Shown here in pieces: positions 34,425 through 64,000 of a stretch of DNA of 64,000 nt. The notes beneath the pieces are model-generated. The model made no database searches. It was not told the origin of the DNA and was given only the letters and a program-made list of their open reading frames with translations. Positions within the stretch are counted from its first letter, which is position 1. Every line of letters starts with the position of its first letter. A program made the translations under genes and the position numbers. The stretch comes from Calonectris borealis (taxonomy: Eukaryota), in the NCBI RefSeq assembly GCF_964195595.1, contig NW_027441456.1:680127-744126 (forward strand), read 5' to 3'.

Positions 34425-35138
34425 TGTTGAGAGATGCTATTGGTAATGCAGATAGCGCTGCTGATGCCATAGCAGATGCAGATACCATTCCAGATGCAGA
34501 CACCATTGCAAAGGGGGTTGCAGATTCAAATACCACTGCAGAAACCTTTGCATATACCTTTGCAGATGCTCCTACCATTCCTGATAATGTTGCCAATGCA
34601 GATACCAAAGCAAATACCTCTGCAGATCAGATGCCATTTCAGATGCTGATTCCATTGCAGCAACCGCTGCAGATACCATTGCTGATGCAAAGTCAGATGC
34701 AAGTACAATGGGAGAAGCAGATGCCATTGCAGATGCAGACATCACTGAAGATGCAGAGGCCATTGCAGATACTCTTACCATTACAAATGCCATTACAGCT
34801 GCAGGTAGCACTGCAGATGTTGATGCCATTGCAAATGCCATTGCGGATGCAGATACCGTTGCAGATACTGATCCTATTGCAGATATGATAATCTTACACA
34901 TATCAATGCAGATACAATTACCATTACAGATGCAATCACCAATACCATTACAGATCCCAATACCAGTACAGAGACAGCGGTACCATTACAGATAGTCAAA
35001 CTGATACCGAGACCATCAGTGGTACAGATACCATTAGAGATAGGGTTGCTTATACTATTTCAGCTAGCGAGAGAATTACTCATGCACATACATTAACCAA
35101 ATACATGTACACATACGGAAACCATTGCAAGCACATGT

Positions 35139-43422: not shown

Positions 43423-43808
43423 AGAACCAACCCATGCCGGTATCAGTCGCCCCTATACAAAAAAGAAAATGCACAAGAAAATCAGCTCGTCTAGTAAGGG
43501 ATGAAGATGAACCAGGGCCATCACGAGAACAGGAGGAGGAGGAGGAGGCGGAACCTGTAAATGAGATGGTGACCACCCGATCCCTATCCCTGGGTGAGCT
43601 GCAAGATATGTGAAAAGACTTCAGTTGTCGTCCAGGCGAGCACATTGTCACCTGGCTGCTCCGATGCTGGGATAACGGGGCCAGTAGCCTGGAATTAGAG
43701 GGTAGGGGAGCCAAGCAGCTGGGATCCCTTTCTAGGGAAGGGGGCATTGACAAAGCAATTGGACAAGGGGCACAAGTCCTCAGCCTCTGGAGGCGAATCC
43801 TCTCAGGT

Positions 43809-44549
43809 GTGAAGGAAAGGTATCCCTTCAAGGAAGATGTTATATGCCACCCAGGCAACTGGACCACCATGGAGAGAGGTATCCAGTACCTGAGGGAATT
43901 AGCCGTGCTGGAAGTGATTTATGATGACCTGAACAACAAGCAGTTATCCAAAGACCCAGATGAAGTCAAATGCACCCGACCCATGTGGCGGAAGTTTGTA
44001 CGGAGGGCACCAGCGTCACGTGCCAACTCATTGGCCATAATGACCTGGAGAGATGGAGAGGAACAAACAGTGGATGAACTGGCTGGCCAACTCCGGCAGT
44101 ATGAAGAAAGTCTCTCTTCCTCCCTACGGGCCTGTGTCTCTGCTGTGGAGAAACTGTCTCAGGAGGTCCAGCAACTCAAAGAGGATATGTCCTGCTCCCC
44201 ACCTGCACGGGCCAGTGTCTCAGCCATTAGGAGCAAGCGGCCCTCTGCTCAAGAGAGGACACATCGTGGGTACACACCCCGGGGCACCCTGTGCTTTTAC
44301 CTGCGTGACCACGGAGAGGACATGAGGCAGTGGGATGGAAAATCTGCCTCAGCCTTACAGGCACGCGTACATGAGTTGCAAGGAAAAACAACCACAAAAG
44401 GGGGTTCTTCCGGGAAAACTGCTGCCCCAGTCTCCAGCGAGCAGTTCCCCAGACAGGGTAGAAGGACTGATTCCACTTCCGACCTTAACAAAGGGACTTC
44501 TGATTCACACTTACAAGAAGTGGATAGTGAATATGATGACCAGGACTAG
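43809..44549 (+). CDS. gag: ERV-A gag (capsid-like) copy 3, intact 246 aa, terminated by TAG followed in-frame by protease
   Basis: 'MKERYPFKEDVICHPGNWTTMERGIQYLRELAVLEV..DSEYDDQD'. Confidence 0.7.
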   Translation: MKERYPFKEDVICHPGNWTTMERGIQYLRELAVLEVIYDDLNNKQLSKDPDEVKCTRPMWRKFVRRAPASRANSLAIMTWRDGEEQTVDELAGQLRQYEESLSSSLRACVSAVEKLSQEVQQLKEDMSCSPPARASVSAIRSKRPSAQERTHRGYTPRGTLCFYLRDHGEDMRQWDGKSASALQARVHELQGKTTTKGGSSGKTAAPVSSEQFPRQGRRTDSTSDLNKGTSDSHLQEVDSEYDDQD

Positions 44550-44570
44550 AGGGGCCCTGCCTCCAGCCAG

Positions 44571-44960
44571 GTGGAGGAAAGGGACAACCGGGTTTACTGG
44601 ACTGTGTGGATTCAATGGCCTGGCACATCAGACCCACAGGAATATAAGGCTCTCGTAGACACCGGAGCACAGTGTACCCTGATGCCACCAGGCTATAAAG
44701 GGGCAGAACCCATTTGTATTTCTGGAGTGACAGGGGGATCCCAAGAGTTAACTGTATTGGAGGCCGAAGGGAGCCTGACCGGGAATGAGTGGCAGAAGCA
44801 CCCCATTGTGACTGGCCCAGGGGCTCCGTGCATCCTTGTCATAGACTACCTCAGGAGAGGGTATTTCAAGGATCCAAAAGTGTACCAGTGGGCTTTTGGT
44901 ATAGCTGCCCTGGAGACGGAGGAAATCAAACAGCTGTCCACCTTGCCCGGTCTCTCGTAG
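44571..44960 (+). CDS. pro: ERV-A protease copy 3
   Basis: 'ALVDTGAQCTLMPPGYKG'; same frame as gag and pol. Confidence 0.85.
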   Translation: MEERDNRVYWTVWIQWPGTSDPQEYKALVDTGAQCTLMPPGYKGAEPICISGVTGGSQELTVLEAEGSLTGNEWQKHPIVTGPGAPCILVIDYLRRGYFKDPKVYQWAFGIAALETEEIKQLSTLPGLS

Positions 44961-44972
44961 GATCCTTCTGTT

Positions 44973-47732
44973 GTGGGGTTGTTGAAGGCCAAAGAACAAG
45001 TACCAATCGCTACCACAACAGTGCACCGGCGGCAATACCGCACCAACCGAGACTCCCTGATCCCCATCCATGAGCTGATTCATCGACTGGAGAGCCAAGG
45101 AGTGATCAGCAAGACTCGCTCACCCTTTAACAGTCCCATCTGGCCAGTGCGAAAGTCCAATGGAGAGTGGAGACTAACAGTAGACTACCGTGGCCTGAAC
45201 AAAGTCACGCCGCCACTGAGTGCTGCCGTGCCGGACATGCTGGAACTTCAATACGAACTGGAATCAAAGGCAGCCAAGTGGTACGCCACAATTGACATTG
45301 CTAATGCGTTCTTCTCCAACCCTTTGGCGGCAGAGTGCAGGCCACACTTTGCTTTCACTTGGAGGGGCGTCCGGTACACCTGGAACCGACTGCCCCAGGG
45401 GTGGAAACACAGCCCTACCATTTGCCATGGACTGATCCACACCGCACTGGAACAGGGTGAGGCTCCCAAACACCTGCAATACATTGATGACATCATCGTG
45501 TGGGGCAGCACAGCAGAAGAAGTTTTTGAGAAAGGGGAGAGAATAGTCCAAATCCTTCTGAAGGCCGGCTTTGCCATAAAACGAAGTAAGGTCAAGGGAC
45601 CTGCACAGGAGATCCAGTTCTTAGGAATAAAATGGCAAGATGGACGTCATCAGATCCCAACGGATGTGATCAACAAAACAACAGCCATGTCCCCACCAAC
45701 TAGCAGAAAGGAAACACAAGCCTTCTTAGGCGTGGTGGGGTTTTGGAGAATGCATATCCCAAATTACAGTCAGATCGTAAGCCCTCTCTATCAAGTGACC
45801 CGGAAGAAGAACGATTTCAAATGGGGCCCTGAGCAACGACAAGCCTTTGAACAAATTAAACGGGAGATAGTTCAGGCAGTAGCCCTTGGGCCAGTCCGGG
45901 CAGGACAAGATGTAAAGAATGTGCTCTACACCGCAGCCGGGGAGAATGGTCCTACTTGGAGCCTCTGGCAGAAAGCACCAGGGGAGACTTGAGGTCGACC
46001 CTTAGGGTTTTGGAGTCGGGGATACAGAGGATCCGAGGCCCGCTATACTCCAACTGGGAAGGAGATATTGGCAGCATATGAAGGGGTTCGAGCTGCTTCG
46101 GAAGTGGTTGGTACTGAAGCACAGCTCCTCCTGGCACCCCGACTGCCGGTGCTGGGCTGGATGTTCAAAGGGAAGGTCCCCTCTACACATCATGCAACCG
46201 ATGCTACGTGGAGTAAGTGGGTCGCACTGATCACACAACGGGCCCGAATAGGAAACCCCAGTCGCCCAGGAATCTTGGAGGTGATCACGAACTGGCCAGA
46301 AGGCAAAGATTTTGGAATATCCCCAGAGGAGGAGGTGACACGTGCTGAAGAAGCCCCACTGTATAATAAACTACCAGAAAACGAGAAGCAATATGCCCTG
46401 TTCACTGATGGGTCCTGTCGCCTTGTGGGAAAGCATCAGAGATGGAAGGCTGCGGTATGGAGTCCTATACACCAAGTCGCAGAAACTGCTGAAGGAGAAG
46501 GTGAATCGAGCCAGTTTGCAGAGGTAAAAGTCATCCAGCTGGCCTTGGACATTGCCGAACGAGAAAAATGGCCAGTGCTTTATCTCTATACTGCCTCATG
46601 GATGGTGGCAAATGCCCTGTGGGGGTGGCTGCAGCAGTGGAAGCAGAACAACTGGCAGCGCAGAGGTAAACCCATCTGGGCTGCCGCACTGTGGCAAGAT
46701 ATTGCTGCCCGAGTAGAGAACCTGGTTGTAAAAGTACGTCACGTAGATGCTCACGTACCCAAGAGTCGGGCCACTGAGGAACATCAAAACAATCAGCAGG
46801 TGGACCAGGCTGCTATGATCGAAGTAGCTCAGATAGATCTGGACTGGCAACATAAGGGTGAATTATTTATATCTTGGTGGACCCACGACACTTCAGGCCA
46901 TCAAGGAAGAGACGCAACATACAGATGGGCTCGTGATCGAGGGGTGCACTTGACCATGGACACTATTGCACAGGTTATCCATGAATGTGAAACATGCGCT
47001 GCAATCAAGCAAGCCAAGCGAGTAAAGCCTCTTTGGTATGGAGGACGATGGTTGAAATATAAATATGGGGAGGCTTGGCACATTGATTATATCACACTCC
47101 CACAAACCCGACAAGGCAAGTGCTATGCTCTCACCGTGGTGGAAGTAACCACAGGATGGCTGGAATTATATCCCGTGCCCCATGCCATCGCCTGGAACAC
47201 CGTCCTGAGCCTTGAAAAGCAAGTCCTATGGCGACATGGCACCCCAGAAAGAATTGAGTCAGACAACGGGACTCACTTCCGAAACACCCTCATAGACACC
47301 TGGGCCAAAGAGCATGGCATTGAGGGGGTCTATCACATCCCCTACCATGCACCAGCCTCCGGGAAAATCGAACGATACAACGGGCTGCTAAAGACAACAC
47401 TGAGAGCAATGGGTGGTGGGACATTCAAGCATTGGGACACACATTTAGCAAAAGCCACCTGGTTAGTCAACACCAGGGGATCTGTCACTCGAGCTGGCCC
47501 TGCCCAATCCAAACTCTTACGCACTGTAGAGGGGGATAAAGTCCCTGTTGTGCATATGAGAAACATGCTGGGGAAGACAGTCTGGGTTACTCCTGCCTCT
47601 GGCAAGGGAAAACCCATTCGTGGGATTGCTTTTGCTCAAGGACCTGGGTGCGCTTGGTGGGTGATGCGAAAGGATGGGCAAGTCCGGTGTGTACCTCAAG
47701 GGGATTTAATTCTGGGTGAAAATAGCCCATGA
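44973..47732 (+). pseudogene. pol: ERV-A pol copy 3 (RT-RNase H-IN) interrupted by TGA at ~45990 (ORFs 44973-45992 and 46068-47732); integrase C-terminus complete
   Basis: 'YIDDIIVWG'; the integrase ends '..WWVMRKDGQVRCVPQGDLILGENSP*'. Confidence 0.85.
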
Positions 47733-49722
47733 ACTGGATTGTATGATATTAGTTACTATATAATACTGTATGTCATCACTTCTATGGTTACTCTATGCCA
47801 TATTAACAGTATTACAGTAAGAATCACCCAGGTTAATGTAGGATGAACTCTGATGAAACCAAGCAAAGTGCAACGATGATAGAACCGGACGAGCGCCCAG
47901 AACTGGCCTCAGCATGCAAGAGCCCAACACCACACACCATCTCTCCTGCCCTGAAAGACTGTTATGGCAGATGGAACCCGAACTCATGGACTAAATGAAC
48001 TCAACGGACATTTTAGAGGGATGGCCCATGGACTAAGGTAATAATATCTCTGTGTGTGTATATATCAAAAGGCAGGAAAAGTGGTGATGACTAATTGGAA
48101 TGTATTGGAAAATGTGAGACCTGGGCATGATGTAGATGGTACAGAATAAGGGGTGGATATTGTCCTGGTTCCAGCTGGGACAGAGTTAGCTTTCTTCCCA
48201 GTAGCTTGGGGGGTGTGCTGTGTTTTGGGTTCGGTGTGAAAGGAGCGTTGATGGCCCATTGATGCTTTGGCTGTTGCTGGGTGGTGCTTGCACTGGGGGG
48301 AGCACAGCCAGGGTGGTGGACCCAGCTGGCCAAGGGGGTATTCTATACCATGTGACATCATGTTCAGTATAAAAACCAGGTGTGTGGGGGGGCTCGCCCC
48401 CCGTTCGTGACACGCGGTCGGCGGTCGGTGAGCAGTTGCATTGTGCATCGCCTGCTTTGTATATTCTGTTACTGTTGTTGTTCTCATTGCTATTATTACT
48501 GTTCTACGCCACGCAGACTCCCCCCGATTGGGACTCTCGTGAAGCACCAAGCTTGCTGAATGGGTTCCTTGTGCCACAGGCCCTGGGCTTATCAGAGATG
48601 CTGTGGGGACAAACATCCCTCCTCTTGCCAGGGGAGCTCTGTCCCCACAATTAGAGCCGCGTGGCTGCCTAGGGACAAGCACCCGCTTCATCGTGTCCCT
48701 CTGGACAGCCACATCCTGCTCAGAGACAATGCTGGCCTGGGTCGAGGACGAGGGCATTGAAGGGACACTCCATGGGGACAGGGGCCTTTGGTGAGCTGTG
48801 GCCAAGTCCCGGGCAGGGGCAGGGCAGGAGCCAGAGCCTTGTTGGGGACGGGGTCACTGGGACCCACTGTCTGGGGGCAACTCTGCAGAGTGGGAGCCGT
48901 GTTGTCTGGGAGGGCACAGTGGCCCCAGGCAGCGGCAGGGTGAGGGCCGGGGCAGGGGATATTCTGCTCTGTTCTCTGCTCTGGGGAGGCCATGTCTGGG
49001 ACTGGACCAGTTTGGGGCCTGCAGTGCAAGGGAAATGGGGTGGGCTGGAGCTGGGCACTGTGACCACCCCAGCACTTCCTCCAAGCCGAGCCCTTGTCTC
49101 CCGGTGCCCAACATTCACCAGTGCTCCCCATTGCCTCCACGGACTGAAGATCCCAGTCACCCAGCTGTCCCCATTGCCCATTCCCCGAGTTGTCCTCCTA
49201 CGTCCCAGTGTTCCCTAATCCCAGGGTCCCAGGGGTCAGTCCCAGCCCCCCATTTACCCAAGGGGCTGGAGAAGGGCCAGAGACAATTCTACTTAGAAAC
49301 CCTTGGTTTGAGGCTGGCGTCATCTCTGGGGGAGTCCCAGAGGGAAAGGCTGGCCTGGGAGGTGAGAGGCACTGCGAGATGGCAGTGCTGGGAGGTGAGG
49401 GGCACTGGGAGCTGGGGGGATCTAGCTTTGGGGGGCTGTTGGAGGATGGTTTCATGCTGGAGCAGTGGGTCATCACCGTAGGGTTTCCAGCTGTCAGAGG
49501 CGCACTGCCCGTCCCCCTCACCACCCGCAGATGCCTGGGCCCTTCCATGTGCAGCTGCCCCTTGCAGGAAGCTGGACTGATGCCGGGGAAGGTGGCTGGA
49601 TCAGTGCCGGAGGCTGAGGCGACTCTGTGCCAGCGCTAGGCTTGCTGCCAGGGCTGGTGTCTCTGCCAAGCCTGGCTTTGCCCTGGGGGCTCTCGGGGTG
49701 GGCAAGGAGGAGTCCTGGGAGG

Positions 49723-49729
49723 GATAAAT
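49723..49729 (+). promoter_or_regulatory. TATA-like box of candidate gene copy 3
   Basis: 'gggataaatcggcccc'. Confidence 0.4.
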
Positions 49730-49782
49730 CGGCCCCTCGCCTTCTCCAGCTTCACCCAGCACTCGCCACACTGCAGAGGAAG

Positions 49783-51520
49783 ATGAAGGTCGCAGCGCTC
49801 AGCATGGCCCTGCTCTTCACCATCCTGCTGTGCACCCCGGAAGATGCTCAGGTGAGTCCCCACTGCCATGGGGAGGGCCTCAAGGCTGGGGATGGGTCTT
49901 GGCTGCAGGATGTCAGCTCTCTTGCAGAATGAAATTGCAGTGGTGAGCATGAAACCTCTTGACATGGCCTCTCCCTTTCTCAAGCAAGGAGCTCCTCTAG
50001 GCTCCCCTGCACCTCCAGCCCTGGGCAATGCAGCTTTCTCCCTCCCACAATTCCATGTTCCCCTCTTCCCCCGCAATTAAACTTCTGGTGCCCAGAGACA
50101 GCGTTCCTCAGAGAGTGGTCAGACCTGTCCCTTCCCTAGTAGGGTTCACTGTAAAATCCTGTGAGGGCTCTTCTCTTGGTGCCCCCACATCTCTCCCTTT
50201 TGGCCTTCCACATCCCATCCTTTTGTCCCCCTCAGACATGCTCTCCCCACGATCTCCTCCTATCTAGGGTCCCCAAATGCCCTCCCACTGATCGTTCCCA
50301 ATGCCTTTCTTTCAGTCTTCCCCCTCAGTCCTTTGCCTTTCATCCTGTCCTCTGCGGTAGTGTCCCCGGATCCCCTTCCTTGAAGTCCCACTCCCAAACA
50401 TTCTCCCAGTCCCCTTCATTTTGTCCTCTGCAGTCCTCTTCCTTCTGCCCCCACCAACCACCTCGCTTGAACTCCCCCTATCTTCTCCACTTGAATTTCT
50501 TTACGCCTCACTTGCGTCCCACGCAGTCCTGTCCATTCAACGCCCCCAGCCCAGTCCCTTGGGGTCCGCTAATTCACCCCAGTGCCCTGTCTTTGGGTGC
50601 CCCCCACCCCCATCGGCTTTGGAGACCCCGAATTCCCCACTCTATCCGTGTCTCCATCCCCACCCCTGGTCCCTGCCTGAACAGGTATCCCCAGTGAAAC
50701 TTGGAGGAATGGGGCTTCGGGGAGCAGAAGGTTTTTTCCCCCTCAGACCAAGGGGAAGCCATGGGCCTGGGGGGACATGGGACACCTATGCCCCACCCAC
50801 AGCCCCACCAAGGTCCAATCCAGACCACACCTTTGCTCTCCTTCCCTAGGCATTCTTCGAAGCAAGTGGAAGTTATAGCCTGGACGTAAGTAGTCGGGTG
50901 GACTTGGAGGGCATCCAGTCTGGGGAATGGGAGGGCAATTTGGTCCTCCCATCCCTTGCTGGGACTGGGGACATCCCAGTGACCAGTGAGGTCTCATGGT
51001 CTCTCTACAGTTCGGGTACAGTTTCGGGCGAGTGAAGAGGGCTGAGGTAGGTACGATGAGTTCTGCTGGCTCCAGACCCTCCCGTTGCATGGCCACAACA
51101 CTCCAGAGCATCCCAGCATAGGCCCCAATAGACCCCACTGCAACCCCAGAGAACACCCTTGCACCACAGTGTTTTCCCAGGGAGGCCCCTTTCCCCAGGG
51201 CCCCCATTGCGTTCTCATTCATCCCATTACAAGCCACTACACCCCAGGATGCCCCAGTACACAGCCACCCACCCAGGTGGGCCCCTTCCCCAGGACGCCC
51301 CTGCTTTCTGTGCACCATCATGGAAACTCAGGTACCCCATTTCTCCCTGGAGGCACCTTCCCCAAGGACCCCATTGCTTTCCCCTGCCTCCTACTCCACC
51401 CCAGTGTACCCAAGCATGTCCCCCCACCACTAACCCTCCCTTTCTCCCCAGCCCCTTCTGGCTGACCAGGCGGCGGAGCTTGTGCGCCGTAGACGCGTGG
51501 CTGCAGCTGTTGATGTCTAG
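49783..51520 (+). CDS. Candidate small secreted peptide precursor gene, copy 3: exons 49783-49851, 50850-50885, 51011-51046, 51452-51520
   Basis: Signal peptide 'MKVAALSMALLFTILLCTPEDAQ'. Exon 2 encodes '..SYSLD', exon 3 'FGYSFGRVKRAE' and exon 4 'PLLADQAAELVRRRRVAAAVDV*'. Indels of 1 bp at both exon-2/3 edges compensate so that phase 0 is kept. Confidence 0.4.
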
Positions 51521-52138
51521 GTGAGCAGCATCAGGGCGTCTCCAGCCCCGCAAAGGACCCTGGGCGCCAAGGGATTCCTACACCCTCTCGGGTGGGCAGA
51601 ACTTGGGTATGGGAGAGGGAAACAGAGGGGACTGTCCATGATCCATGTCTCAGGGTGAGCTGGACAGAGCTGCCCCCATGCCTTTCCTGGCACCCAGTGG
51701 GGCTCTACAGACCCAGAGGGTCACCGTGCAGGCCAGGCAAGGGCTCTGGTGCCATACAGACCCCCAGGATCACCTTGAGGGGTGGGCAGGGCTCTGGGAG
51801 CTTTAGGGGCATCCTGGGCTAATGACACACTGGGCGAGGGGCTCTGGGTGCCATATGGATTTCAGGAGAGCCGAGTCCTGTCCTGGGTATACTGAGGGCT
51901 CCAATTCCTGTCCCCTTCCCCAGATCCCTGCAGAGAGAGATGGTGGGGGCGAGGCCCCTCTCACGTCCCAGCAGACACTGGGGGGTTCATTTTGGGCTCT
52001 GTCTTTCAGGACTGGAACTGGTGGTGACACCCTTGTCCCGTCCCCCTCCAGCGGCATGAGGAGATGATCATACCTGGATGACCCCACCTGGTCCCCTGGG
52101 AGGCCTGGGCCATTTCCCTCTAATGATCAATAAACCCC

Positions 52139-52144
52139 TTCAGC
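52139..52144 (+). terminator. Polyadenylation signal AATAAA, candidate gene copy 3
   Basis: 'taatgatcaataaaccc'. Confidence 0.45.
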
Positions 52145-52949
52145 AAAGCTACGCTCTGTGTGTCCGTCGGTGTCCTTGTCCATGTCCCTGTCCATGTCCC
52201 CTCTCCTCTGCCAGCACCCAGATGCCTGGGTTGTTTCTGGCTGCACCACTGCCATGAGCAGAGTGGCTGAGGGACCCCGGATGCCAGGGGTGTCTCTGTA
52301 AAGGAGATCCCCTTCCCACCCACCGTGTGCCTCCAGATAAGGGCACATTAGGGCAAACTGGGGTGTCCCCCCATGAGGCTGGGAGAGGTAAGGGGCAGAC
52401 AGTGCCAGCCCTTAGGGCACCCAGTCTTTTGGAGGCACAGCAGGAAACAGGTTCTTACCGGGACTCTATTGAGCACCATCCCCCAATTTGGTGTCAGGGC
52501 AGGAAAGGAGTGCAGACAGGCATCCCAGATCCCTGGGTGTTCTGCCCCGCTCTGGGAGTGGTGGTGGTTCCCTGCCCCATGGACTCACCACTCCCAGGAG
52601 ATTTCAGAGCCCCATGCTGGGCCTCCCTGGACCCCCAGCCCACACCCTTCTCTGGGGCACCCCCCATCATAGGCCAGGAAGGCATTTTGGGGCCACTGGA
52701 CACTGCAGAGAATCCCCCAGGGATGTGCGGTCCATCTCCATCACCATGAGAGTGGGAGAAGATGGTTCTGTGGCACTGAGCCTCTGTGGGTCTTCTCTGG
52801 TGTCTAGGAGTGAAGTTCAGCCACCAGCTGCAGTTGGTATCTCCACAAAAAGGCACAGGCAGGGCTGCTCCCTCTAGCCCAGAGGCCTGCTCTGACAATT
52901 TGGGGACTGGAAGTGGCCAACAGGGCCAGTCCTTATTAGGGGAGGAGGA

Positions 52950-55900
52950 CGTCTGGGGAAAGACAGGGGCACATGTTGAAAATGTTGTCGTTATGAATCG
53001 TTATGGCCTCACCTTGAGAGGAGACAGACGAAATATTCTACCAGAGGCTGGCAGATGTCTCACACTCGCTAGCCCTTTTTCTCGTGGGGGGCTTCAACTT
53101 TCCGGACGTCTGCTGGAAATACCACACGGCAGAGAGGAAACAGTCGAGGAGGTTCCTGGAGTGTGTGGAAGATAACTTCCTGACGCAGCTGGTAAGCGAG
53201 CCCACTAGGGGAGGTGCCTCGCTTGACCTCCTGTTTACAAACAGAGAAGGGCTGGTGGGAGATGTGGTGGTCGGAGGCCGGCTTGGGCTTAGCGACCATG
53301 AAATGGTAGAATTCTCGATACTTAGTGAAGTAAAGAGGGGGGCCAGCAAAACCGCTACCATGGACTTCCGGAGGGCGGACTTTGGCCTGCTGTACTGGTT
53401 CCGGCTGGGACAGGGTTAACTTTCTTCCCAGTAGCTTGGCGGGTGTGCTGTGTTTTGGGTTCGGTGTGAAAGGAGCGTTGATGGCCCATTGATGCTTTGG
53501 CTGTTGCTGGGTGGTGCTTGCACCGGGAGGGGGGAGCACAGCCAGGGTGGTGAACCCAGCTGGCCAAGGGGGTATTCTATACCATGTGACATCATGTTCA
53601 GTATAAAAACCAGGTGTGTGAGGGGGCTCGCCCTCCCGTTCGTGACACGTGGTCGGCGGTCGGTGAGCAGTTGCATTGTGCATCGCCTGCTTTGTATATT
53701 CTGTAATTGTTGTTGTTCTCAGTGTTATTCTTACTGTTCTACTTCGTTTTATTTCAATTATTAAACTGTTTTTATCTCAACCCGGGAGCTTTCCTACTTG
53801 TGCCCTCCCGATTCTCTCCCCCATCCCACCGGCGGGGGAGTGATCGAGCGGCTGCGTGGGGTTTATTTTTGCTGGCTGGGGTTAAACCACGATACCTGCT
53901 CAGGACACTGGTCGAGAGGGTCCCTTGGGAGACAGTCCTGAAGGGCAAAGGGGTCCAGGAAGGCTGGACGTTCTTCAAGAAGGAAGTCTTAAAGGCGCAG
54001 GAGCGGGCTGTCCCCATGTGCCGCAAGAAGAACGGGCGGGGAAGACGACCGGCCTGGCTGAACGGGGAGCTCTGGCTGGGACTCAGGAAAAAAGGAGAGT
54101 TTATCACCTTTGGAAGAAGGGGCAGGCAACTCAGGAAGAGTACAGGGATCGCGTTAGGTCGTGCAGAGAGGAAATTAGAAAGGCAAAAGCCCAGCTAGAA
54201 CTCAACCTGGCCACTGTTGTGAGAGACAACAAAAAATGCTTTTATAAGTATGTTAATGACAAAAGGAGAGCCAAGGAGAATCTCCATCCTCTATTGGATG
54301 CAGGGGGGAACGTTGCCACCAAGGACGAGGATAAGGCTGAGGTACTCAATGCCTTCTTTGCCTCAGTCTTTAATAATCAGAGCAGTTATCCTCAGGGTAC
54401 TCAGCCCCCTGAGCTGGAAGACAGGGACGGCGAGCAGGACAAACCCCCCATAATCCAAGAGGAAGCAGTTAACGACCTGCTACGCCACCTGGACGCTCAC
54501 AAGTCTGTGGGGCCGGATGGGATCCACCTGAGGGTACTGAGGGAGCTGGCGGAGGAGCTTGCCGAGCCGCTCTCCATCATTTACCAGCAGTCCTGGTTAA
54601 CTGGGGAGGTCCCGGACGACTGGAGGCTCGCCAATGTGACGCCTATCTACAAGAAGGGCCGGAAGGAGGATCCAGGGAACTACAGGCCGGTCAGCCTGAC
54701 CTCGGTGCCGGGGAAGATCATGGAGCGGTTGGTTTTGAGGGCGCTCACGAGCCATGTCCAGGACAACCAGGGGATCAGGCCCAGCCAGCACGGGTTCATG
54801 GAAGGCAGGTCCTGCTTGACCAACCTGATCTCCTTCTATGACCAGGTGACCCGCCTAGTGGATGAGGGAAAGGCTGTGGATGTGGTCTACTTGGACTTCA
54901 GTAAGGCCTTTGACACTGTCTCCCACAGCATTCTCCTAGAGAAGCTGGCGGCTCACGGCCTAGACAGGTACACTCTTTGCTGGGTAAAAAACTGGCTGGA
55001 CGGCCGAGCCCAGAGAGTTGTGGTCAACGGAGTTAAACCCAGTTGGCGGCCGGTCACGAGCGGTGTTCCCCAGGGCTCAGTGCTGGGGCCGGTCCCGTTC
55101 AATATCTTTATCAATGATCTGGACGAGGGGATCGAGTGCTCCCTCAGTAAGTTTGCAGATGACACCAAGTTGGGTGGGAGTGTTGATCTGCTGGAGGGTA
55201 GAAGGCTCTGCAGGGGGACCTGGACAGGCTGGATCGATGGGCTGAGGCCAACTGTATGAGATTCAACAAGGCCAAGTGCCGGGTCCTGCACTTCGGCCAC
55301 AACAACCCCAGGCAACTCTACAGGCTTGGGGAAGAGTGGCTGGAAAGCTGCCCAGAGGAAAAGGACCTGGGGGTGCTGATTGACAGCCGGCTGAACATGA
55401 GCCGGCAGTGTGCCCAGGTGGCCAAGAAGGCCAACGGCATCCTGGCCTGTATCAGAAATAGTGTGGCCAGCAGGAATAGGGAGGTGATCGTGCCCCTGTA
55501 CTCGGCACTGGTGAGGCCGCACCTCGAATCCTGTGTTCAGTTTTGGGCCCCTCACTACAAGAAGGACATGGAGGTGCTGGAGCGTGTCCAGAGAAGGGCA
55601 ACGAAGCTGGTGAAGGGCCTGGAGAACAAGTTTTGTAAGGAGCGGCTGAGGGATCTGGGGTTGTTTAGTCTGGAGAAGAGGAGGCTGAGGGGAGACTTCA
55701 TCGTGCTCTACAACTACCTGAAAGGCGGTTGTTGTGAGGTGGGTGTTGGTCTCTTCTCCCAAGTAACAGCGATAGGACGAGAGGAAATGGCCTCAAGTTG
55801 TGCCAAGGGAGGTTTAGACTGGACATTAGGAGAAATTTCTTTACTGAAAGAGTGGTCAGGCCTTGGAACAGGCTGCCCAGGGAAGTGGTTGAGTCACCAT

Positions 55901-56036
55901 CCCTGGAAGTATTTAAAAGACATGTAGATGAGGCGCTTAGGGACATGGTGTAGTGGGTATGGTAGTGTTGGGTTGATGGTTGGACTTGATGATCTTAGAG
56001 GTTTTTTCCAACCTTAATGATTCTATGATTCTATGA
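52950..56036 (+). mobile_element. CR1 LINE (endonuclease C-terminus through RT to 3' tail, ~2.6 kb of CR1) interrupted by a nested solo LTR at 53390-53890
   Basis: - Pre-LTR: '..LDLLFTNREGLVGDVVVGGRLGLSDHEMVEF..MDFRRADFGLL'.
- Post-LTR: '[22 protein letters not shown]..'.
- ORF2 RT at 53925-55259 and 55256-55927, with 'FADDTKL' and '..[39 protein letters not shown]'.
- The element ends 'ggttggacttgatgatcttagaggttttttccaaccttaatgattctatgattctatga'. Confidence 0.9.
53390..53890 (+). mobile_element. Solo LTR of family LTR-A inserted into CR1 ORF2 (outside the tandem array)
   Basis: 'tgtactggttccggctgggacagggttaac...tataaaaacc...ctcaacccgggagctttcc..'. It includes the U5-end segment missing from the ERV-A 3' LTRs. 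Flanking 'cctgc' may be the target-site duplication. Confidence 0.8.
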
Positions 56037-56184
56037 AAGGTCCATGGCAGCTGGGCTAAAACTCAGTCCTTGTCTCTGTGCTGTGTGTCTCCTGCCTCTC
56101 CAAAGCCCTCACACTGATAATGGCTGATCTCACAACCTCTCATGGAAAGTCCACACCAGTCTGCAAAGCTCATTGCTGTCCACA

Positions 56185-56302
56185 GGGAAGGGAAGGGAAG
56201 GGAAGGGAAGGGAAGGGAAGGGAAGGGAAGGGAAGGGAAGGGAAGGGAAGGGAAGGGAAGGGAAGGGAAGGGAAGGGAAGGGAAGGGAAGGGAAGGGAAG
56301 GG
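56185..56302. repeat. (GGGAA)n microsatellite, ~23 units, pure purine/pyrimidine strand asymmetry
   Basis: Uninterrupted 'gggaagggaagggaag...' run. Confidence 0.95.
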
Positions 56303-57289
56303 GTTGTGTGTCCTGTCAGGGCTGACACTCACTGGGTCTCTCCGTCCAGTCCCAGAGGCAGCTCTTCTCCCAGGGTTATGGTGTTCACAAGCTCTTCGGC
56401 TTTACATGCAGGGAGAAGGCAGACAGATTCCGCAGGGCCTTCAGTCTTGCAGCTGCTGCTGCTGGAGATTCAGAGCTGTCTGTGCTGGGACACTGGCCTG
56501 GGACATGTGCCCAAGCCCATGGCACGTTCCCAGTGCTGCTGATCAGCCACGCCTAGCTGAGGGATGGGACCTTGGCCTCAACATGCATTGACCTTCAGGG
56601 AAAAGTGTCTTGGTGTTTACATGCCATGAGAGGCAGGAGAGTCTCTTGCATTTGAAGAGAGAGACAAACATTGGAGGAGTCCTTTCTTCTTCAGCCAACC
56701 TCATCCCATCTTGAAACACTTTCCCAGGGGCCAGTCCTGCCCCTTTTGGGCAGGGCCCCGACTCCAGAGGTTGCTGCTCTCCATCCCGCAAGGGCGGCCA
56801 GGAAAACCCTACTTCCCAGGTGCTGGTGGGAGTGGGAGGACAGGCAAAGCTGGGGAGGGGAACCACCCTCCTGCCTGGCCGGCGTCCACTGCAGAAACAG
56901 CTTCTTTTGTCTCTTCTTCCTCCTTCCCAGATGGACCCTTTACAATGCTGTCAGCCTGACCCTTCCTTCTTCTCAGTCTGAACGGAGCATCGTGCCCTGC
57001 ATCTGCAGCCGTGTTCCCCCTCTGGCTGAGCCTCTCCTGCCTCCCACCTCCCCCTGCTCCAGCACGCATAGCCCCAGCTGTGCCCTCAGTGCCTCCAGCT
57101 AAGGACAGGTTTCAGTCTTTGGCCTAGGCATGCAGAGAGTTCCTTGGTGTCAGGATTGAGCATCGACACTGGTCCTCAGCCTGTCTCCTGCTCCTGTTGC
57201 ACAAGAGCAGCTCTCCTGAGTCAGACAGAAGCTGGTGCCCTGTCATCAGCAGTGCCACATATAGCCAGTGGCAAGGGAAAGTGTTTAAG

Positions 57290-57650
57290 AAACAAGGAAG
57301 GTGAAGAAGGATTTTTATTTCCCCCTCTGTCAGTGTGGTGGGTAGACCTTGGCTGGCTGCCAGATCTCAGCCTCCCTCCTCAACAAGACAGGGGGAGAAA
57401 ATCAGATTAAAAAGCTCATGGGTCGAGATAAGGACAGGGAGTTGCTTACCAATTACCACCGTGGGCAAAACAGACTCAACTCGGGGAAGATTAATTGCCA
57501 GTTAAAAATATAGTAGGATAGTGAGAAACAAAAGCAAAACTAAAAATACCTTTGCCCCACCGCCCCTTCTTCTTAGGCTCAGCTTCACTCCTGATCTTCT
57601 ACCTTCTCCCCCCAAGCAGTACAGGGGTATGAGGAATGGGGGTTGCGGTC
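57290..57650 (-). mobile_element. Fragment of an LTR related to LTR-B (U5-proximal part), minus orientation
   Basis: 'gggggagaaaatcagattaaaaagctcatgggtcgagataaggacagg' aligns with LTR-B(-) 11340-11410 'gggggagagaatcagacgggtaaaagtgagaaaactaatgggttgagatatagac'. Confidence 0.45.
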
Positions 57651-57689
57651 AGTCCATAACACTTTGTCTCTGCTTCTCCTTCCTCCTCA

Positions 57690-58110
57690 CTCTCCTCCTG
57701 CTCCAGCGCGGGGTCCTACCCATGGGATACAAGCCCTTCACAAACTACTCCAGCATGGGTCTTTTCCACAGGATACAGTCCTTCACGAATGGACTGCTCC
57801 AGTATGGGTTCCCCACAAGGTACAGTCCACAGTGCTTTAGTGTGGGTCCCCCATGGGCCACAGTGTCTGCCAGAAAACCTGTTCCTGCATGGGCTCCTCT
57901 CCACAGGCCACAGGTCCTGCCAGAAAACCTGCTCCAGCGCGGGCTTTCCACTGGCTGCAGCTTCCTTCAGGGCACATCCCCTTGCTCTGGCATGGGGTCC
58001 TCCACAGGCTGCAGGTGGATATCTGCTCTACCATGGACCTCCATGGGCTGCAGGGGGACAACCTGCCTCACCATGGTCTTCACCACGGACTGCAGAGGAC
58101 TCTGGAGCAC
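57690..58110. repeat. Degenerate tandem repeat, ~55-60-bp periodicity (ctgctccag..ggg..ccacagg..cag motif), open in two + frames
   Basis: Repeating 'cttcacaaactactccagcatgggtcttttccacaggatacagtc / cttcacgaatggactgctccagtatgggttccccacaaggtacagtc / ..cctgctccagcgcgggctttccactggctgcagc..'. Confidence 0.6.
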
Positions 58111-58649
58111 CTCCTCCCCCTCCTTCTTCACTGACCTTGGTGTCTGCAGGGCTGTTTCTCTCACATTTTCTCACTCCTGTCTCCCAGCTTTTGCTGCATG
58201 GCATTTTTTTAACCTTTCTTAAATATGTTATTATGAAGGCACCACCAGCTTTGCTGATGGGTTCAGTTTTGGCCAGCGATGGGTCCGTCTTGGAGCTGGC
58301 TGGAACTGGCTCTGTCCGACACAGGGGAGCCCCTGGTCTCTTCTCACAGAAGCCACCCCTGCAGCCCCTTCCCCCCTCCAAACTTTGCTATGTAAACCCA
58401 ATGCAGTCAGCCTTTCCCTGTTTTGCAACAGCTGGAGGTTACAGGACTTGTGGCCTAGAAGTGTCTGTACCACTGCACTAAGGAGCTGGTGAATCTTTTG
58501 CTGTCAATTTGTTTAACTTTCTTTGGACCCATTTGCATGTTTGTCACCACCAAAAACTCAGAGGACTGGTGAAGTTGTGTGAAGGAGGACTTAAGGACAT
58601 GTGCTAGCATCGAGCCTCGTGGGACTTTGCTGATAATTTCCCTCCAGGA

Positions 58650-58835
58650 TGAACAGTGTTCATTATCTCTTGGCTGTGGTTTCATCCCTCCAGACATGCA
58701 CTGAATGACCACCAACATTTATGTTGGGAATTTTTCCCTCACCCCACTGCATTTCATGTCTTCAGTGGGGTCAACTGCAGGAGAATATTTCCCAGGGGGC
58801 TGGAGTGGACCCGAGAGTCCCCAGGACCAGTAGGA
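58650..58835 (+). repeat. Diverged (~80%) paralog of unit coordinates ~8990-9230, lacking the CR1 tail present at 9097-9151
   Basis: 'gttcattatctcttggctgtggttt..tccagacatgcactgaatgaccaccaacatttatgttgggaatttttccctcaccccactgcat|ttcatgtcttcagtggggtcaactgcaggagaatatttcccagggggctgg' aligns with 8996-9230 minus the CR1 fragment. Confidence 0.75.
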
Positions 58836-59339
58836 TGTGGGCAGGGCTGATGGGCTTGAGGGCAGGAACTGGCGGCTGACCAAACTCACCCAGAAGCACC
58901 TGGGAGGTTTGGTTGTGAGGTACACCCAGCTGTCATGTCCTGGGACTGCCTGGCAAGGGGCAGGTGATCACCTCTGCCCCAGCCCAGACTTTGTTCTGTT
59001 TCCTCCTACAGTTCTTGGTCACATTTTAACAACAGCAACAAAAAAAAAGAAAACAAAACCAAACACCCCCTTCCAACCCAGCCTTTGTGCAAGAGTTTCC
59101 CAGTGCAGAGTGATTTCAGGGCAGAGGGCATTGAATTTAAATCTCTAAAGCCCTTTTGAACATCTTCACAGGCTTTGGCAGCATTTAGACAGAGTCATGA
59201 TGGTTTTACCTTAAATAGTTTCACGGTATCAATGGTGAAAGAAAGAAGACGCTTCCCAGGGGAGAGAGGAAACCTCTCCGTTTCTCCCATGGGCTCTGCT
59301 ATCTCCACACTTTTGGCCCAATGAAAACTTAATGATGCC

Positions 59340-60485
59340 CAGGCCTCCCTTCTCAGAGGCTGAAGGAGGAAACTACCCAGGAAACTACAGATCTGTTAGT
59401 CTAACCTCAGCACCTGAAAAAATTATAGAGGAGATCACACTGGGTGCTACTGAAAGGCATTTAAAGAACAATGCAATCATCAGGCACAGAAACACGGGTT
59501 CACAAAGGGAAAGTCCTGTTTAACTAATTTGATATCTTTCTACAATAAGATCACCTGCCTAGTGGGGGAAGGGAAGGTGGTGGATATAGTTTTTCTGGAT
59601 TCTAGTAAGGCTTTTGATACTGTCCCTCACAGCATCCTTCTGGACAAGTTGTCCAACTGTGAGATGAGCAGCTTCACGGTGCGCTGGGTGAAGAACTGGC
59701 TGAACGGCAGGACTCAAAGGGTGCTGGCGAATGAGGCTACATCTGGCTGGCAACCAGTCACCAGCCCTGTTCCTCAGGGCTCAATCCTAGGGCCAGTTCT
59801 ATTCAATGTTTTTATCAACAATCTGGATGCAGGAGTTGAATGCGCCATTAGCAAGCTTGCTGACCATACTACACGGGGAGGTGCTTTTGACAAGAGGGAC
59901 AAGAGGACACAGTAGAACCAGTCAGTCAAAAGAGGTGATTAACCCACTGTATTCAGTGTTGGTGTGGCCTCACCTTGAGTACTGTGTGCAGTTCTGGCCC
60001 CCACCATTTAAAAAGGATGCTAAGGTCCTTGAATGTGTCCAGAGAAGGGCAACAAAGCTGGTGAAAGGGCTGGAAGGAATGTCCTATGAGGAGCGGCTAA
60101 GGACTCTGGGTTTGTCTAGTTTGGAGACCAGGAGGCTGAGGGGTGACCTCATTGCTCTCTACAGCTTCCTGAGGAGGGGATGTGGAGAGGGAGGTGCTGA
60201 TCTCTTCTCCCTGGAATCCAGCGCTAGGATGCATGAGAGTGTCTCAAAGCTGCACCAGGGGAGGTTCAGACTGGACATGAGGAAGCATTTCTTTACTGAG
60301 AGGGTGGTCAAACCCTGGCACAGGCTTCCTAGAGAGGTGGTTGATGCCCCATGCCTGTCAGTGTTTAAGAGGCGTTTGGACAATGCCCTTCTTAATAACA
60401 TGCTTTAACTCTTGGTCAGCCCTGAAGTGGTCAGGCAGTTGGACCAGATGATTGTTGTAGATCCCTTCCAACTGAACTATTCTGT
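59340..60485 (+). mobile_element. CR1 LINE ORF2 RT fragment ending in an expanded (TTCTA)n tail
   Basis: '..GNYRSVSLTSAPEKIIEE..', '..VDIVFLDSSKAFDTVPHSILLDKL..', and '..[44 protein letters not shown]..'. The 3'UTR reads 'ggttggaccagatgattgttgtagatcccttccaactgaactattct'. Confidence 0.85.
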
Positions 60486-60560
60486 TCCGTTCCGTTCCAT
60501 TCTATTCTATTCTATTCTATTCTATTCTATTCTATTCTATTCTATTCTATTCTATTCTAT
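60485..60560. repeat. (TTCTA)n microsatellite (~12 units) derived from the CR1 3' tail repeat
   Basis: 'ttccgttccgttccattctattctattctattct...'. Confidence 0.9.
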
Positions 60561-60699
60561 TTACCCCTCCATGCCTTTAGGTGAAGGGAGGCCACAGGGC
60601 AGCACTCAGGTGGTGGGTGAAGCGAGGAAGAGGAAGAGGAGGAGAGAGGTGAGGCGGACACTTCCCACAGGAAACCAGAAGAGCCTTTCTGCCCAGGCG

Positions 60700-61100
60700 C
60701 TGCAGGTGTTGACCTTGAGCCAGTGGGAATAAAGAGGGAAATCTCACCTGCTAAAACTGGTGGGCTCCTTGCTTACTGCTGTTCATAAGGAGCCCTCCTG
60801 CGTCCAGCTCATACCAGACAGCTAAGTTTCTCCCTTGCAGTGCTCTCAACTTCTTCCATCAACCTTTCCAAGAAAGGTTCTCAGCAAATTACAAGCTTGC
60901 TCTTTCTGTTTTGGGATAAGGGTGCCCTCCTGTGCGGTAATATGGAACAATGAATGTGTTTGACATCCCTTAATTCTCTATGGAATAACATATTGAGGAA
61001 CTGAGGCAACAACTTCCATAAAGTTGTCCCTGATTATTCTTTATTTTGAGTGAAACTGCAAAAGAAAATAATTACAAGAGAGAGTCTAATGTTGCTTAGG
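60700..61100 (+). repeat. Diverged (~75%) paralog of unit coordinates ~9600-10060
   Basis: 'gcttgctctttctgttttgggataagggtgccctcctgtgcggtaatatggaacaatgaatgtgtttgac..gaggaactgaggcaacaacttccataaagttgtcc' aligns with 'gcttgctcttcctgttatgggtaagggtgccttcacgtggagtaacagggaacaacgattgtgtttaac..gaggaagaggcaacaatttctatacaattttggc'. Confidence 0.65.
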
Positions 61101-61149
61101 CAGTGATATTTAGGAAAAAAAAACAACCCCACACCTCTTAAAAGATAGG

Positions 61150-63075
61150 TTATATCACAAAATCACAGAATCATGGAATAGTTGAGGTTGGAAAAGACGT
61201 CTGGAGGTCACCTAGTTCAACTCCCTGCTTAAGCAGGGCCACCTACAGCCAGTTGCCCAGGACTGTGTCCAGGCGGCTTTTGACTGTCTCCAAGGATGGA
61301 GACTCCACCACCTCCCTGGGCAACTTGTGCCAGTGCTTGGTCACTCTCATCTAGTGGAAGATGTTCCTGATGTTCAGAGGGAACCTCCTGTCTCTCAGCT
61401 TGTGCCCATTGCCTCTGGTCTTGTCACTGGGCACCACTGAGAAGAGCTTGGCTCCGACTTCTCCGCACCCTCCCTTCAGATATTTATATATAGTGATGAG
61501 ATTCCCCTGAGCCTTCTCTTCTCCAGGTTCAACAGTCCCAGCTCTCTCAGCCTTTCCTCATAGGAGAGATGCTCCAATCCCTTCATCAGCTTCGTGGCCC
61601 TTCATTGGACTCTCCAGTATGTCCATGAGAGCCCAGCACCAGACACAACACCCATGCTGAATAGAGGGGAAGGATCACCTCCCCCACCTACTGGCAACAC
61701 TCCTAATGCAGCCCAGGACACCATTCACCACCTTTGCCACAAGGGCACACTGCTGGCTCATGGTCAACTTGGTGTCCATCAGGACCCCCGGGTCCTTTTC
61801 TGCTGAGCTGCTTTCCAGCTGTTCAGCCCCCAGCATATCTTGGTGCCTGGGGTTGTCCCTCCAGGGGCGGGACTTTGCACTTCCCCTTGTTGATCTTCAT
61901 GAGATTCCTGGCAGCCCATTTCTCCAGCCTGTTGAGGTCTCTCGGGATGGCAGCTTGACTCTCCAACATATCAGCCACTCCTCCCAGTTTGGTGTCCTCT
62001 GCAAACTTGCTGAGGGTACACTCTGCCCCATCAATCAGATCATTGATGAAGATGTTAAACAGCACAGTATTGATCCCTGGGGTACACTACTCGTTAGTGG
62101 CTTCCAACTACACTTTGTGCTACTGATCACCACATTCTGGGCCCAGTTCTTCAGCCAGTTTTCAATCCACCTCACTGTTGGCTCCTCTAGATCAGACTTC
62201 ATCAGCTTCTCTATGAGGATCTTATGGGAGACATTGCCAAAGGCCTTCCTGAAGTCCAGGTAGACAATACCCACTGCTCTCCCCTCATCTACCAGGCCAG
62301 TCATTTCATCAGAGACATTTATCAAGTTGATCAAGTCTGAATTCCCCTTGGTGGAGCTATGTTGACTACTTCTGATGATTTTCTTGTCCTTCATGTGCCT
62401 AGAAATCCTTTCCAGGATTAGCTGCTTCATTGCTGGGTCCTCCTTGACCTTCTTGAAGGTAGGAGTAACATTTGCTTCTCTCCAGCCTTTGGGCACTTCT
62501 CCCAGTTGCCGTGGTCAATCAAAGATTATCAAGCGTGGCCTCACAATGACATCAGCCAGTTCCCTCAGCCCTCATGGGTGCATCCCTTCTGGGCCCATGG
62601 ACTTACGTATGTCCCATTTGCTTAAGTATTCCCTGGCCTGATCCTCTTCCACCAAGGGTATGTCTGCCTTGCTCCAGACTTTCCCCCTGCTGTCTGGGGC
62701 CTGGGACTCCTGAAGGCCAGTCTTGCCTGCTGAGGCAAAGAAGGCATTCAGTGCCTCAGCCTTTTCCATGCCCTGTGTAACCAAGTCCTCTGCCTCATTC
62801 AGCAGTGGGCGGACACTTTCCCTAGCTTCCCTTTTGTCAGCCTTTGTACTTAGAGCAGTACATCCTTTTTGCACTTATAGAAGCCCTTTTTGGTGTCTTT
62901 GACATCCCTGGTCAGATTCAATCAGATTCAGCTTTCCTAACCTCATCCCTAGATGCTCAGACAACATCTCTGTATTCCTCCCAGGTTACCCGTCTTTGCT
63001 TTCACTGTCTGCTTCCTTTTTGTGTCTGAGTTTGGCCAGGAGCTCCTCTTCCTTCATGCAGGCCTCCTGGCATTA
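61150..63075 (-). mobile_element. CR1 LINE (~1.9 kb, ORF2 RT through 3' end), minus strand, different subfamily from the array CR1s
   Basis: - The 3' end reads 'acaaaatcacagaatcatggaatagttgaggttggaaaagac'.
- Minus-strand ORFs include '..KAFGNVSHKILIEKL..', '..[29 protein letters not shown]..' and '..EKAEALNAFFASA..IRKSMGPEGMHP'. Confidence 0.85.
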
Positions 63076-63189
63076 ACGTTTTATTTTCTTCCTCCCTCAC
63101 TTCCCCCTTCCAGATCATCCTCATACCTGTGATGGATGCACTTGACCCCTTAACCAAACGAGCGGTACTTTGGCACAGGCTCCAAAGGA

Positions 63190-63531
63190 GATAAATGTTG
63201 GAGAAAATTAGCCAGACTAGGCCGCGGTGGGAAAATTCTGAGTCATGCTGAGAAGGGAGAAAAGAAAGTTATGCTGACCTTGCTCTGTGCAGATAAGCAA
63301 CTTTGAGAAAGTACAGTATAAGGAAAACAGGATGGAACCCGGACCACGTAGCAGTAACCGAAAGTAGGAGGAATATGATAATGTAATTTTTAGAGCTAAG
63401 CCAATGATTGTGAGACAAGTGTGCATAAGGTAGAACTTAGTGTATAAATATGTGTAGGGTTTTACAATAAAGTTGAAGCTGGCCTTATCACTCACATTGA
63501 GTCGACTGCCTGCCTTCCCTCGCTCGTCGCA
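63190..63531 (+). mobile_element. 5' LTR (approximate start) of a third ERV lineage (ERV-C)
   Basis: TATA 'tgtataaatatg' at ~63443, 'caataaagttgaagctgg' at ~63466, and the LTR ends '..cgctcgtcgca' just before the PBS. Confidence 0.5.
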
Positions 63532-63533
63532 AG

Positions 63534-63551
63534 TGGCGCCCGAACAGGGAC
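63534..63551 (+). other. Primer-binding site, tRNA-Lys3 type (exact TGGCGCCCGAACAGGGAC)
   Basis: 'tggcgcccgaacagggac' lies 2 nt after the LTR terminal CA. Confidence 0.75.
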
Positions 63552-63762
63552 CCCCCATCCCTGTTTTCCACCGGACAGCGAGATCGGAGAAGCACTGGTA
63601 GCAGCGACCAGGGAGCAGAAGATCAGTAGACGCTGTCGCGGCGTGCCTGATCCGTGCTTGAACCCAGGATAATAAAGAAGGGGTTCGCCGTCCGATAGAA
63701 GGCTACCCGTGGGAAAAGGCTGCAAACGACCGGATAATTAAGAGGGTCAGGAGAAGCGCGCA

Positions 63763-64000
63763 ATGGAAGTAGAGGTAGCCTTCGATATTTTAAAACGCTT
63801 TTTAGAAGAGCGGGGAGTAAGCCAATTAAAAGACCTGGCTGGTTTAATTGCGTTAGGGAAAACGAAAGGGTTTTTTAAAAACCCTGAAAGTATGTTTGAA
63901 GTAGACGAGTGGCGTTCTTATGGAGATTGTTTGTGGGATCTAGTAATTGATGATGATAAATCAGCAAGAAAATTAATGAAATCTTGGAGAGAAGTTATTA
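63763..64000 (+). CDS. gag: ERV-C gag N-terminus (matrix-like), ORF runs off the window end
   Basis: An ATG ~210 nt after the PBS opens 'MEVEVAFDILKRFLEERGVSQLKDLAGLIALGKTKGFFKNPESMFEVDEWRSYGDCLWDLVIDDDKSARKLMKSWREVI' with no stop. Confidence 0.55.
   Translation, partial: MEVEVAFDILKRFLEERGVSQLKDLAGLIALGKTKGFFKNPESMFEVDEWRSYGDCLWDLVIDDDKSARKLMKSWREVI

Follow-up and report, generated by a model that had tools for sequence, protein, structure and literature searches.

Where duplicated sequence has gone through crossover or conversion, the end-points are usually marked by abrupt switches of identity inside otherwise continuous homology, and retroposons serve, by their presence or absence, as standard markers of relative age. 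Copies of the retroposon family CR1 are usually heavily 5'-truncated and end with a conserved 3' hairpin and an octamer motif (Suh et al. 2014, PMC4316615), and a review states that the repeats at the ends of a tandem array are homogenized less efficiently than the central ones (Garrido-Ramos 2017, PMC5615363, citing McAllister & Werren 1999). Here we describe the right edge of a large tandem array in a 64,000-nt stretch of the Calonectris borealis genome (GCF_964195595.1, NW_027441456.1:680,127-744,126, forward strand; hereafter the window, to which all coordinates refer). This right end probably sits on an older paralogue of the region at ~8.6-10.1 kb of the repeat unit, the left part of which was overwritten by non-allelic homologous exchange.

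The locus resembles each of these systems in part. The likeness to the array-end effect is that the interior copies are kept similar and the outer part of the terminal copy is far more diverged; however, the repeat is a 21.9-kb transposon-rich segmental duplication with ~2.4 visible copies and not a short satellite, the divergence rises in a single sharp step (from 2% to 11%) and not in a gradual gradient over many units, and the interior is itself tiered, at 0.3% versus 2%. As in segmental duplications formed by non-allelic homologous recombination, and as at the boundaries of gene-conversion tracts, there is an abrupt identity switch within continuous homology and an older paralogy outside the exchanged segment, but the founding event and the left breakpoint are not visible and no recognizable gene is involved. 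Finally, as with the retroposon markers used in birds (PMC4316615), one paralogue carries a heavily 5'-truncated CR1 3' fragment that the other cleanly lacks, so that the fragment orders an insertion relative to two duplications; here, however, the paralogues lie within one genome and are not orthologues across species, and gene conversion could in principle erase or copy the marker.

The array edge and the older layer

Self-BLAST of the window revealed copies arranged head-to-tail with a period of 21,858 bp, recorded as a single self-alignment of 1-30823 against 21859-52684 at 97.9% identity. Copy 1 occupies 1-21858, copy 2 21859-43757 and a partial copy 3 begins at 43758, with ~2.4 copies visible in all; identity is 97.9% between copies 1 and 2 and 96.2% between copies 1 and 3. 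Transposon sequence predominates in the unit. The recent layer of partial copy 3 (43758-52399, plus strand) corresponds to unit positions 1-8619, lies at a Kimura two-parameter distance (K2P) of 0.023-0.029 from copies 1 and 2 with a sliding identity of 93-100%, and contains the pro/pol region of an endogenous retrovirus, its truncated 3' long terminal repeat (LTR), a GC-rich non-transposon block and an AATAAA signal at 52130.

Left of position 52400, copy 3 is 97.1-97.7% identical to copies 1 and 2. For substitutions found only in copy 3, maximum likelihood places the change point at 52400 (2-lnL support 52377-52401; 2dlnL=43), where their rate rises from 2.0% on the left to 10.5% on the right, and in the same analysis the K2P between copy 3 and copies 1 and 2 goes from 0.027-0.036 to 0.13-0.14. 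The rise is private to copy 3: over unit 8620-8921 copies 1 and 2 differ by a K2P of 0.038, and copy 3 differs from either by 0.13-0.14. The segment beyond the step, which we call zone A' (52400-52684, plus strand), is in register with unit 8620-8921 (copy 2: 30507-30823) and carries ~11% substitutions (K2P 0.12-0.14) together with several indels, the main ones being an 8-bp insertion and deletions of 9, 8 (23 relative to copy 2) and 5 bp. Homology to the unit ends at 52684, 285 bp past the step, with the three-way alignment in register until that point, and the junction at 52400 itself lies in perfect register inside continuous homology, without a breakpoint signature. These data agree with the first-pass annotation of this DNA, which had placed a collapse from ~98% identity at ~52405 and the end of homology at 52684; its figure of 80-85% for 52405-52684, with several indels, is also correct if gaps are counted (zone A' is ~82% identical with gaps and 88-89% by substitutions only). 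Selection cannot account for how similar the copies are to the left of 52400, because that stretch includes a decayed provirus. No remnants of the older layer were found inside copy 3, where the densest private clusters (9-11 differences/150 bp) look like small complex events.

To the right of the step, a sensitive search of 52300-64000 against the unit returned only three non-transposon matches, namely zone A' and two further patches, all of them on the plus strand and in the order of the unit. The significance of the two patches is given as z against dinucleotide shuffles. Island 1 (58656-58855, plus strand; z=50) is an old paralogue of unit 8995-9089 plus 9151-9254, its whole unit counterpart on the plus strand being 8995-9254 (copy 2: 30897-31149), which includes a CR1 tail. 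Its identity is 85-88% in the first half, where the first 27 bp are identical in unit and flank, and 78-80% in the second half; a leftward extension to 58598 (unit 8967), across a 26-bp insertion, is borderline. Island 2 (60864-61157, plus strand; z=45) is an old paralogue of unit 9837-10117 (copy 2: 31729-32011) and is AT-rich, with ~20% substitutions, many small indels and a transition/transversion ratio (ts/tv) <1, its identity being 67% with gaps and 74-80% by substitutions only. By comparison, five control segments of the flank gave z<2, and 60560-60860 shows no homology (z=0.7). The first island thus lies where it had been reported before (~58650-58835 against unit ~8990-9230); for the second, previously placed at 60700-61100 against 9600-10060, a homologous patch is indeed present, but the alignable block is confined to the coordinates given here. 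A resumption of homology after the tail of the first CR1 of the flank, from 56037 onward against unit 8922 onward, was also considered and was not significant.

The older layer may itself be two-tiered in divergence. Zone A and the first half of island 1 have a K2P of 0.12, compared with 0.23-0.24 in island 2 and in the second half of island 1; counted on either side of the site of the CR1 tail, the substitutions are 41/371 on the left (11%; unit 8620-9089, flank 52400-58750) and 73/366 on the right (20%; unit 9151-10117, flank 58751-61157), these being small numbers.

The CR1 tail provides a time marker. This 61-bp fragment (unit 9090-9150, plus strand) consists of a CR1 3'-UTR end plus octamers of the ATTCTRTG type and is carried by both full units, but not by island 1. 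Its sequence (...TTCCAACCTAAATGATTCTGTGATTCTCTGATTCTATGA) can be aligned with the terminal 55-60 bases of five further CR1 3' ends of the window, all of which belong to elements with reverse-transcriptase open reading frames (ORFs; Pfam RVT_1), and it also matches CR1 tails in a stork locus (L005, see below). The flank presents a clean empty site, CCCCACTGC|ATTTCATGTC, and the unit reads the same with the 61 bp in between. Since the tail is found in both units and is cleanly absent from island 1, its insertion came after the old split and before the recent amplification. This timing had been proposed from the first reading and holds, although the tail had been placed at 9097-9151; a block is indeed missing from island 1, at the position given here.

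We also compared the copies with one another. Unit 1-8619 is represented in all three (1-8619, 21859-30506 and 43758-52399) and contains 317 variable sites, of which copy 1 has 125 to itself, copy 2 has 75 and copy 3 has 117. Sorted by the odd copy out, these sites are clustered (162 runs against 208+-8 expected; z=-5.5 in a runs test), and the copies are therefore mosaics of tracts; the pattern points to exchange tracts or to imports from unseen paralogues. In addition, copies 1 and 2 differ by ~2.0-2.3% from unit 21093 through the wrap to ~10137 and by 0.27-0.38% over ~10137-21093, with zero differences in 12688-15000. The boundary at 21093 (support 20975-21128) lies inside the retroviral gag gene, and that at 10137 (support 9394-10749) falls together with the point where the old paralogy reaches its limit on the right, 10117. 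A single unequal crossover as the source of the 0.3% and 2% tiers is ruled out: copy 2 is no simple hybrid of copies 1 and 3, because it has 75 private sites. The tiers are most simply read as the trace of a long exchange that copies 1 and 2 underwent recently.

Weighing the explanations

In favour of an older, partly overwritten paralogue under the right end of the array are the three highly significant patches, which share strand and unit order and have no other copy in the window. Exchange between the copies is itself directly indicated by the clustering of their variable sites and by the tiers that separate copies 1 and 2. The first-pass annotation had spoken of an ancient terminal copy or flank that escaped homogenization; this core idea is the best supported, although the older layer survives only in patches of uneven divergence, and homogenization of the interior units is not uniform either, as the two tiers between copies 1 and 2 illustrate.

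Several observations weigh against the older paralogue. The array continues off the left end of the window, so that its left edge lies outside and a mirror structure is not visible. The divergence of the patches is uneven, at 11% versus 20%. Between zone A' and island 1, the flank holds ~1.75 kb of unannotated non-transposon sequence (52685-53017, 56037-57329 and 58481-58597), against 45-73 bp in the unit, and between the islands 582 bp of the unit and 801 bp of the flank do not align at all. The stop of homology at 52684 does not coincide with a CR1 junction. The step at 52400, read in one haplotype, may stem from a single founding crossover or may mark how far outward repeated conversion reached. 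Lastly, the sample of other birds that is used below detects only high-copy, widely shared repeats, and low-copy or lineage-specific ones would escape it.

The refutation foreseen for the older paralogue was that the patches are dispersed repeats. We compared the window with 151 kb of sequence from around homologues of the retroviral pol gene in six birds (ibis, crane, pigeon, manakin, stork and razorbill), none of the loci being orthologous to the window, with which they share transposon sequence only. All five of the transposon-annotated flank segments match two to four of these six loci each. In contrast, nothing in this sample matched zone A, the GC-rich block, any unannotated segment or the islands once the CR1 tail was set aside, the sole exception being a weak match, A-rich and 48 bp long, to island 2 in its unit copy. 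In the window itself, zone A and the islands are confined to array and flank positions, whereas every recognized transposon has several copies. A high-copy, widely shared repeat is, on these sequence comparisons, excluded as the origin of the patches. In addition, two metagenome scans of low power, one queried with a pseudo-protein that runs from zone A to island 1 and the other with a 24-mer taken from island 1, gave no match. Exact-product look-ups of two flank ORFs, aimed at the orthologous locus, found nothing.

A rarer repeat would be harder to see in such a sample. Repeat-mediated unequal crossing-over is a standard origin of tandem duplications, and the patches could belong to an interspersed repeat, low in copy number or specific to the lineage, with one copy in the flank and another at unit 8.6-10.1 kb; unequal crossing-over between these two copies, ~21.9 kb apart, would have made the array, with 52400 as the crossover point. 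The patches are short and are split by unalignable sequence, as fragments of an element would be, and the locus is otherwise saturated with transposons. We nevertheless consider this explanation unlikely: the window and the six bird loci add only the A-rich match of 48 bp where recognized transposons show several copies each, order and strand are kept across all three patches, and the patches have no coding or Pfam signal and no terminal-repeat or tail structure that we could see. Alternatively, the duplication could be far older, with selection having kept the patches, as conserved non-coding elements, at 80-90% identity (they might, for instance, be regulatory and lie 3' of an unannotated transcript that ends at the AATAAA at unit 8353) and the neutral sequence between them having diverged beyond alignment. 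This would account for the alternation of alignable patches with unalignable stretches, which are of similar length between the islands (582 versus 801 bp), and for the 27 identical bases at the start of island 1, and it would suit the first exon with a signal-peptide-like sequence, the GT donor and the polyadenylation signal that lie just upstream and are conserved in 3/3 copies. Against it, none of the frames of the GC-rich block has a homologue or a domain, and island 2, AT-rich, riddled with indels and with a ts/tv <1, looks unconstrained; the patches are also absent from the sampled bird loci, which, being non-orthologous, could not have shown cross-species conservation. We regard selection of this kind as improbable. 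That the array was joined during assembly to a diverged paralogue from elsewhere, so that 52400 is a chimaeric junction, appears very improbable. Tandem repeats of ~22 kb at 97-99.7% identity are admittedly hard to assemble, and the tiers of 0% and 0.3% between copies 1 and 2 could include effects of collapse or polishing, but the junction is in perfect register within continuous homology and has no breakpoint signature, two more colinear patches follow in the flank, and a real old paralogue would still be required somewhere.

Elements of the unit and of the flank

The unit contains an endogenous retrovirus with a 5' LTR at 20122-20616, gag from 20973, pro/pol at 814-3678 of the next unit (Pfam RVT_1, RNase_H and rve) and a truncated 3' LTR at 4390-4740. 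There is one provirus per unit (20122-21858 plus 1-4740, and likewise in the next unit), and its family is widespread among birds. Its two LTRs differ by a K2P of 0.047-0.052, and the 3' LTR is short by ~134 bp compared with the 5' LTR and with a solo LTR of the flank. The best protein matches of the retroviral pol reach at most 91% amino acid identity (Amazona, Theristicus and Grus), and the provirus DNA is 85-88% identical to the ibis and crane copies. A second retroviral fragment and several CR1 long interspersed elements (LINEs) are also found in the unit. One of these CR1 elements (10945-12714, minus strand; copy 2: 32839-34610) contains a nested LTR-like insert at 11285-11849, at which site the CR1 copies of the ibis (L001 3809-4319) and of the crane (L002 6044-6694) are uninterrupted, at 80-83% identity. 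This same element shows 68% identity to CR1a and 80-83% to CR1 copies of other birds.

In the right flank, the end of homology at 52684 is followed by 333 unannotated bp (52685-53017) with no homology to the unit. A CR1 insertion at 52684 as the reason why homology stops was rejected: judged by the longer CR1 of the stork locus, the element begins at 53018, and 52685-53017 is unlike the 5' continuation of that longer copy (z=0.3) and is not part of the CR1. This first CR1 LINE of the flank (53018-56036, plus strand) is 5'-truncated and comprises the C-terminal part of the endonuclease, the reverse transcriptase (Pfam RVT_1, 1.8e-30) and an octamer tail, (ATGATTCT)2.5, at 56017-56036; the endonuclease match is weak (Exo_endo_phos, 17.6 versus a cut-off of 27.4 bits). 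The element is 82-87% identical to a CR1 in the Mycteria locus L005, with 82% DNA identity to the longer L005 CR1 in the endonuclease region. Nested in it is a solo LTR (53395-53893, plus strand) of the same family as the unit retrovirus, flanked by a 6-bp target-site duplication, CCTGCT, and 92% identical to the unit 5' LTR (20128-20616; K2P 0.04-0.06); the CR1 of Mycteria americana, the wood stork (L005 22467-20066), is uninterrupted there and provides the empty site.

Further along are a perfect microsatellite, (AGGGA)23.8, at 56184-56302, and a dispersed avian LTR-like repeat at 57330-58480, whose ORF at 57789-58478 matches 832 representative protein clusters at E<=1e-3 and which has nine DNA matches in two of the six bird loci (ibis and crane), of up to 72% over 1.1 kb. 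A second CR1 (59355-60485, plus strand) retains the C-terminal part of the reverse transcriptase and the 3' end (RVT_1, 8e-14), and (CTATT)17 at 60477-60561 directly continues this 3' end, replacing the usual octamer repeats. A CR1 with a solo LTR, a microsatellite, an LTR fragment and another CR1 had all been described as lying between the islands; each of them exists, but only the second CR1 lies there, the CR1 with the solo LTR, the microsatellite and the LTR-like repeat sitting between 52684 and island 1. A third CR1 (61154-63064, minus strand; RVT_1) is an independent insertion: the possibility that it is a paralogue of the unit CR1 at 10945-12714, which would have extended the old layer to unit 12.5 kb, is ruled out as the two are only 61-65% identical, a lower value than either shows with unrelated CR1 copies. 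The stretches of the flank without annotation are 52685-53017, 56037-57329, 58481-58597, 58856-59354 and 60562-60863; two of them, 52685-53017 and 56037-57329, on either side of the first CR1, matched nothing in the unit, elsewhere in the window or in the loci of the six birds.

The GC-rich block spans ~4.7-9.6 kb of the unit. Pfam was blank for the three plus-strand frames of 5950-8400 and for the three minus-strand frames of 4750-9650, no homologue was found in a set of 5.8 billion proteins with concatenated frames or ORFs as queries, and Rfam and tRNA scans gave no hits. The block contains an ORF start that resembles a signal peptide, MKVAALSVALLFTILLCTPEDAQ, at 6016-6084, 27886-27954 and 49783-49851, followed by a consensus GT donor, CAG|GTGAGT; an AATAAA polyadenylation signal lies 2.3 kb downstream of the ORF start, at 8353, 30240 and 52130. 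Both the ORF start and the AATAAA are kept in 3/3 copies, with a single V>M change, in copy 3. The ORF start and poly(A) signal at 6016-8353 may mark an unannotated lineage-specific transcript, or may be nothing.

A proposed history of the locus

If the right end of the array does sit on an older paralogue, the history of the locus might be reconstructed as follows. An old duplication (K2P ~0.12-0.24) would have produced A in the unit and A' in the flank, after which a 5'-truncated CR1 fragment would have inserted into A and other transposons (CR1s and LTRs) into the A' region. An endogenous retrovirus would then have inserted upstream (LTR-LTR K2P ~0.05), and the 21.9-kb unit, now including the retrovirus, would have been amplified and homogenized by unequal crossing-over and/or gene conversion to a K2P of 0.023-0.029. 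The rightmost exchange would have ended at 52400 inside A', such that the sequence to the left was replaced by that of the array type and the sequence to the right kept its old state. A very recent long exchange of copy 1 with copy 2 would be the last step. The order of ages is self-consistent, the old layer (K2P 0.12-0.24) exceeding the LTR pair (0.047-0.052) and the LTR pair exceeding the distance between copies (0.023-0.029). If neutral sequence in birds is assumed to change at ~2e-9 per site per year, the steps of this history would be, very roughly, ~30-60, 12, 6 and <1 million years old.

On this reading, the right edge is a classical array-end effect. Exchange requires homology on both sides of its end-point, and therefore the stretch before 52684 and the patches beyond it would be unreachable and would keep diverging. 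A more elaborate form of this history, which we hold to be improbable, is that each exchange stopped at heterology made by transposons, giving a staircase of divergence that runs outward from 0.3% to 2%, 11% and 20%, with the step from 11% to 20% exactly at the 61-bp CR1 tail, and that the GC-rich core is an unannotated lineage-specific transcript with expanding copy number. If true, the locus would document, in the genome of a bird, the natural ending of conversion tracts at small insertions.

The locus is a further instance of known phenomena, in a large transposon-rich unit and not in a satellite, and it leaves the knowledge of concerted evolution and of array edges unchanged; its use lies in annotating and dating the locus and in judging the assembly. 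It also offers a clean case, open to dating, of a bird genome in which a large tandem duplication grew over an older paralogue and in which the order of events, from the old duplication through the CR1, the retrovirus and the amplification to the very recent long exchange, can be read from one haplotype.

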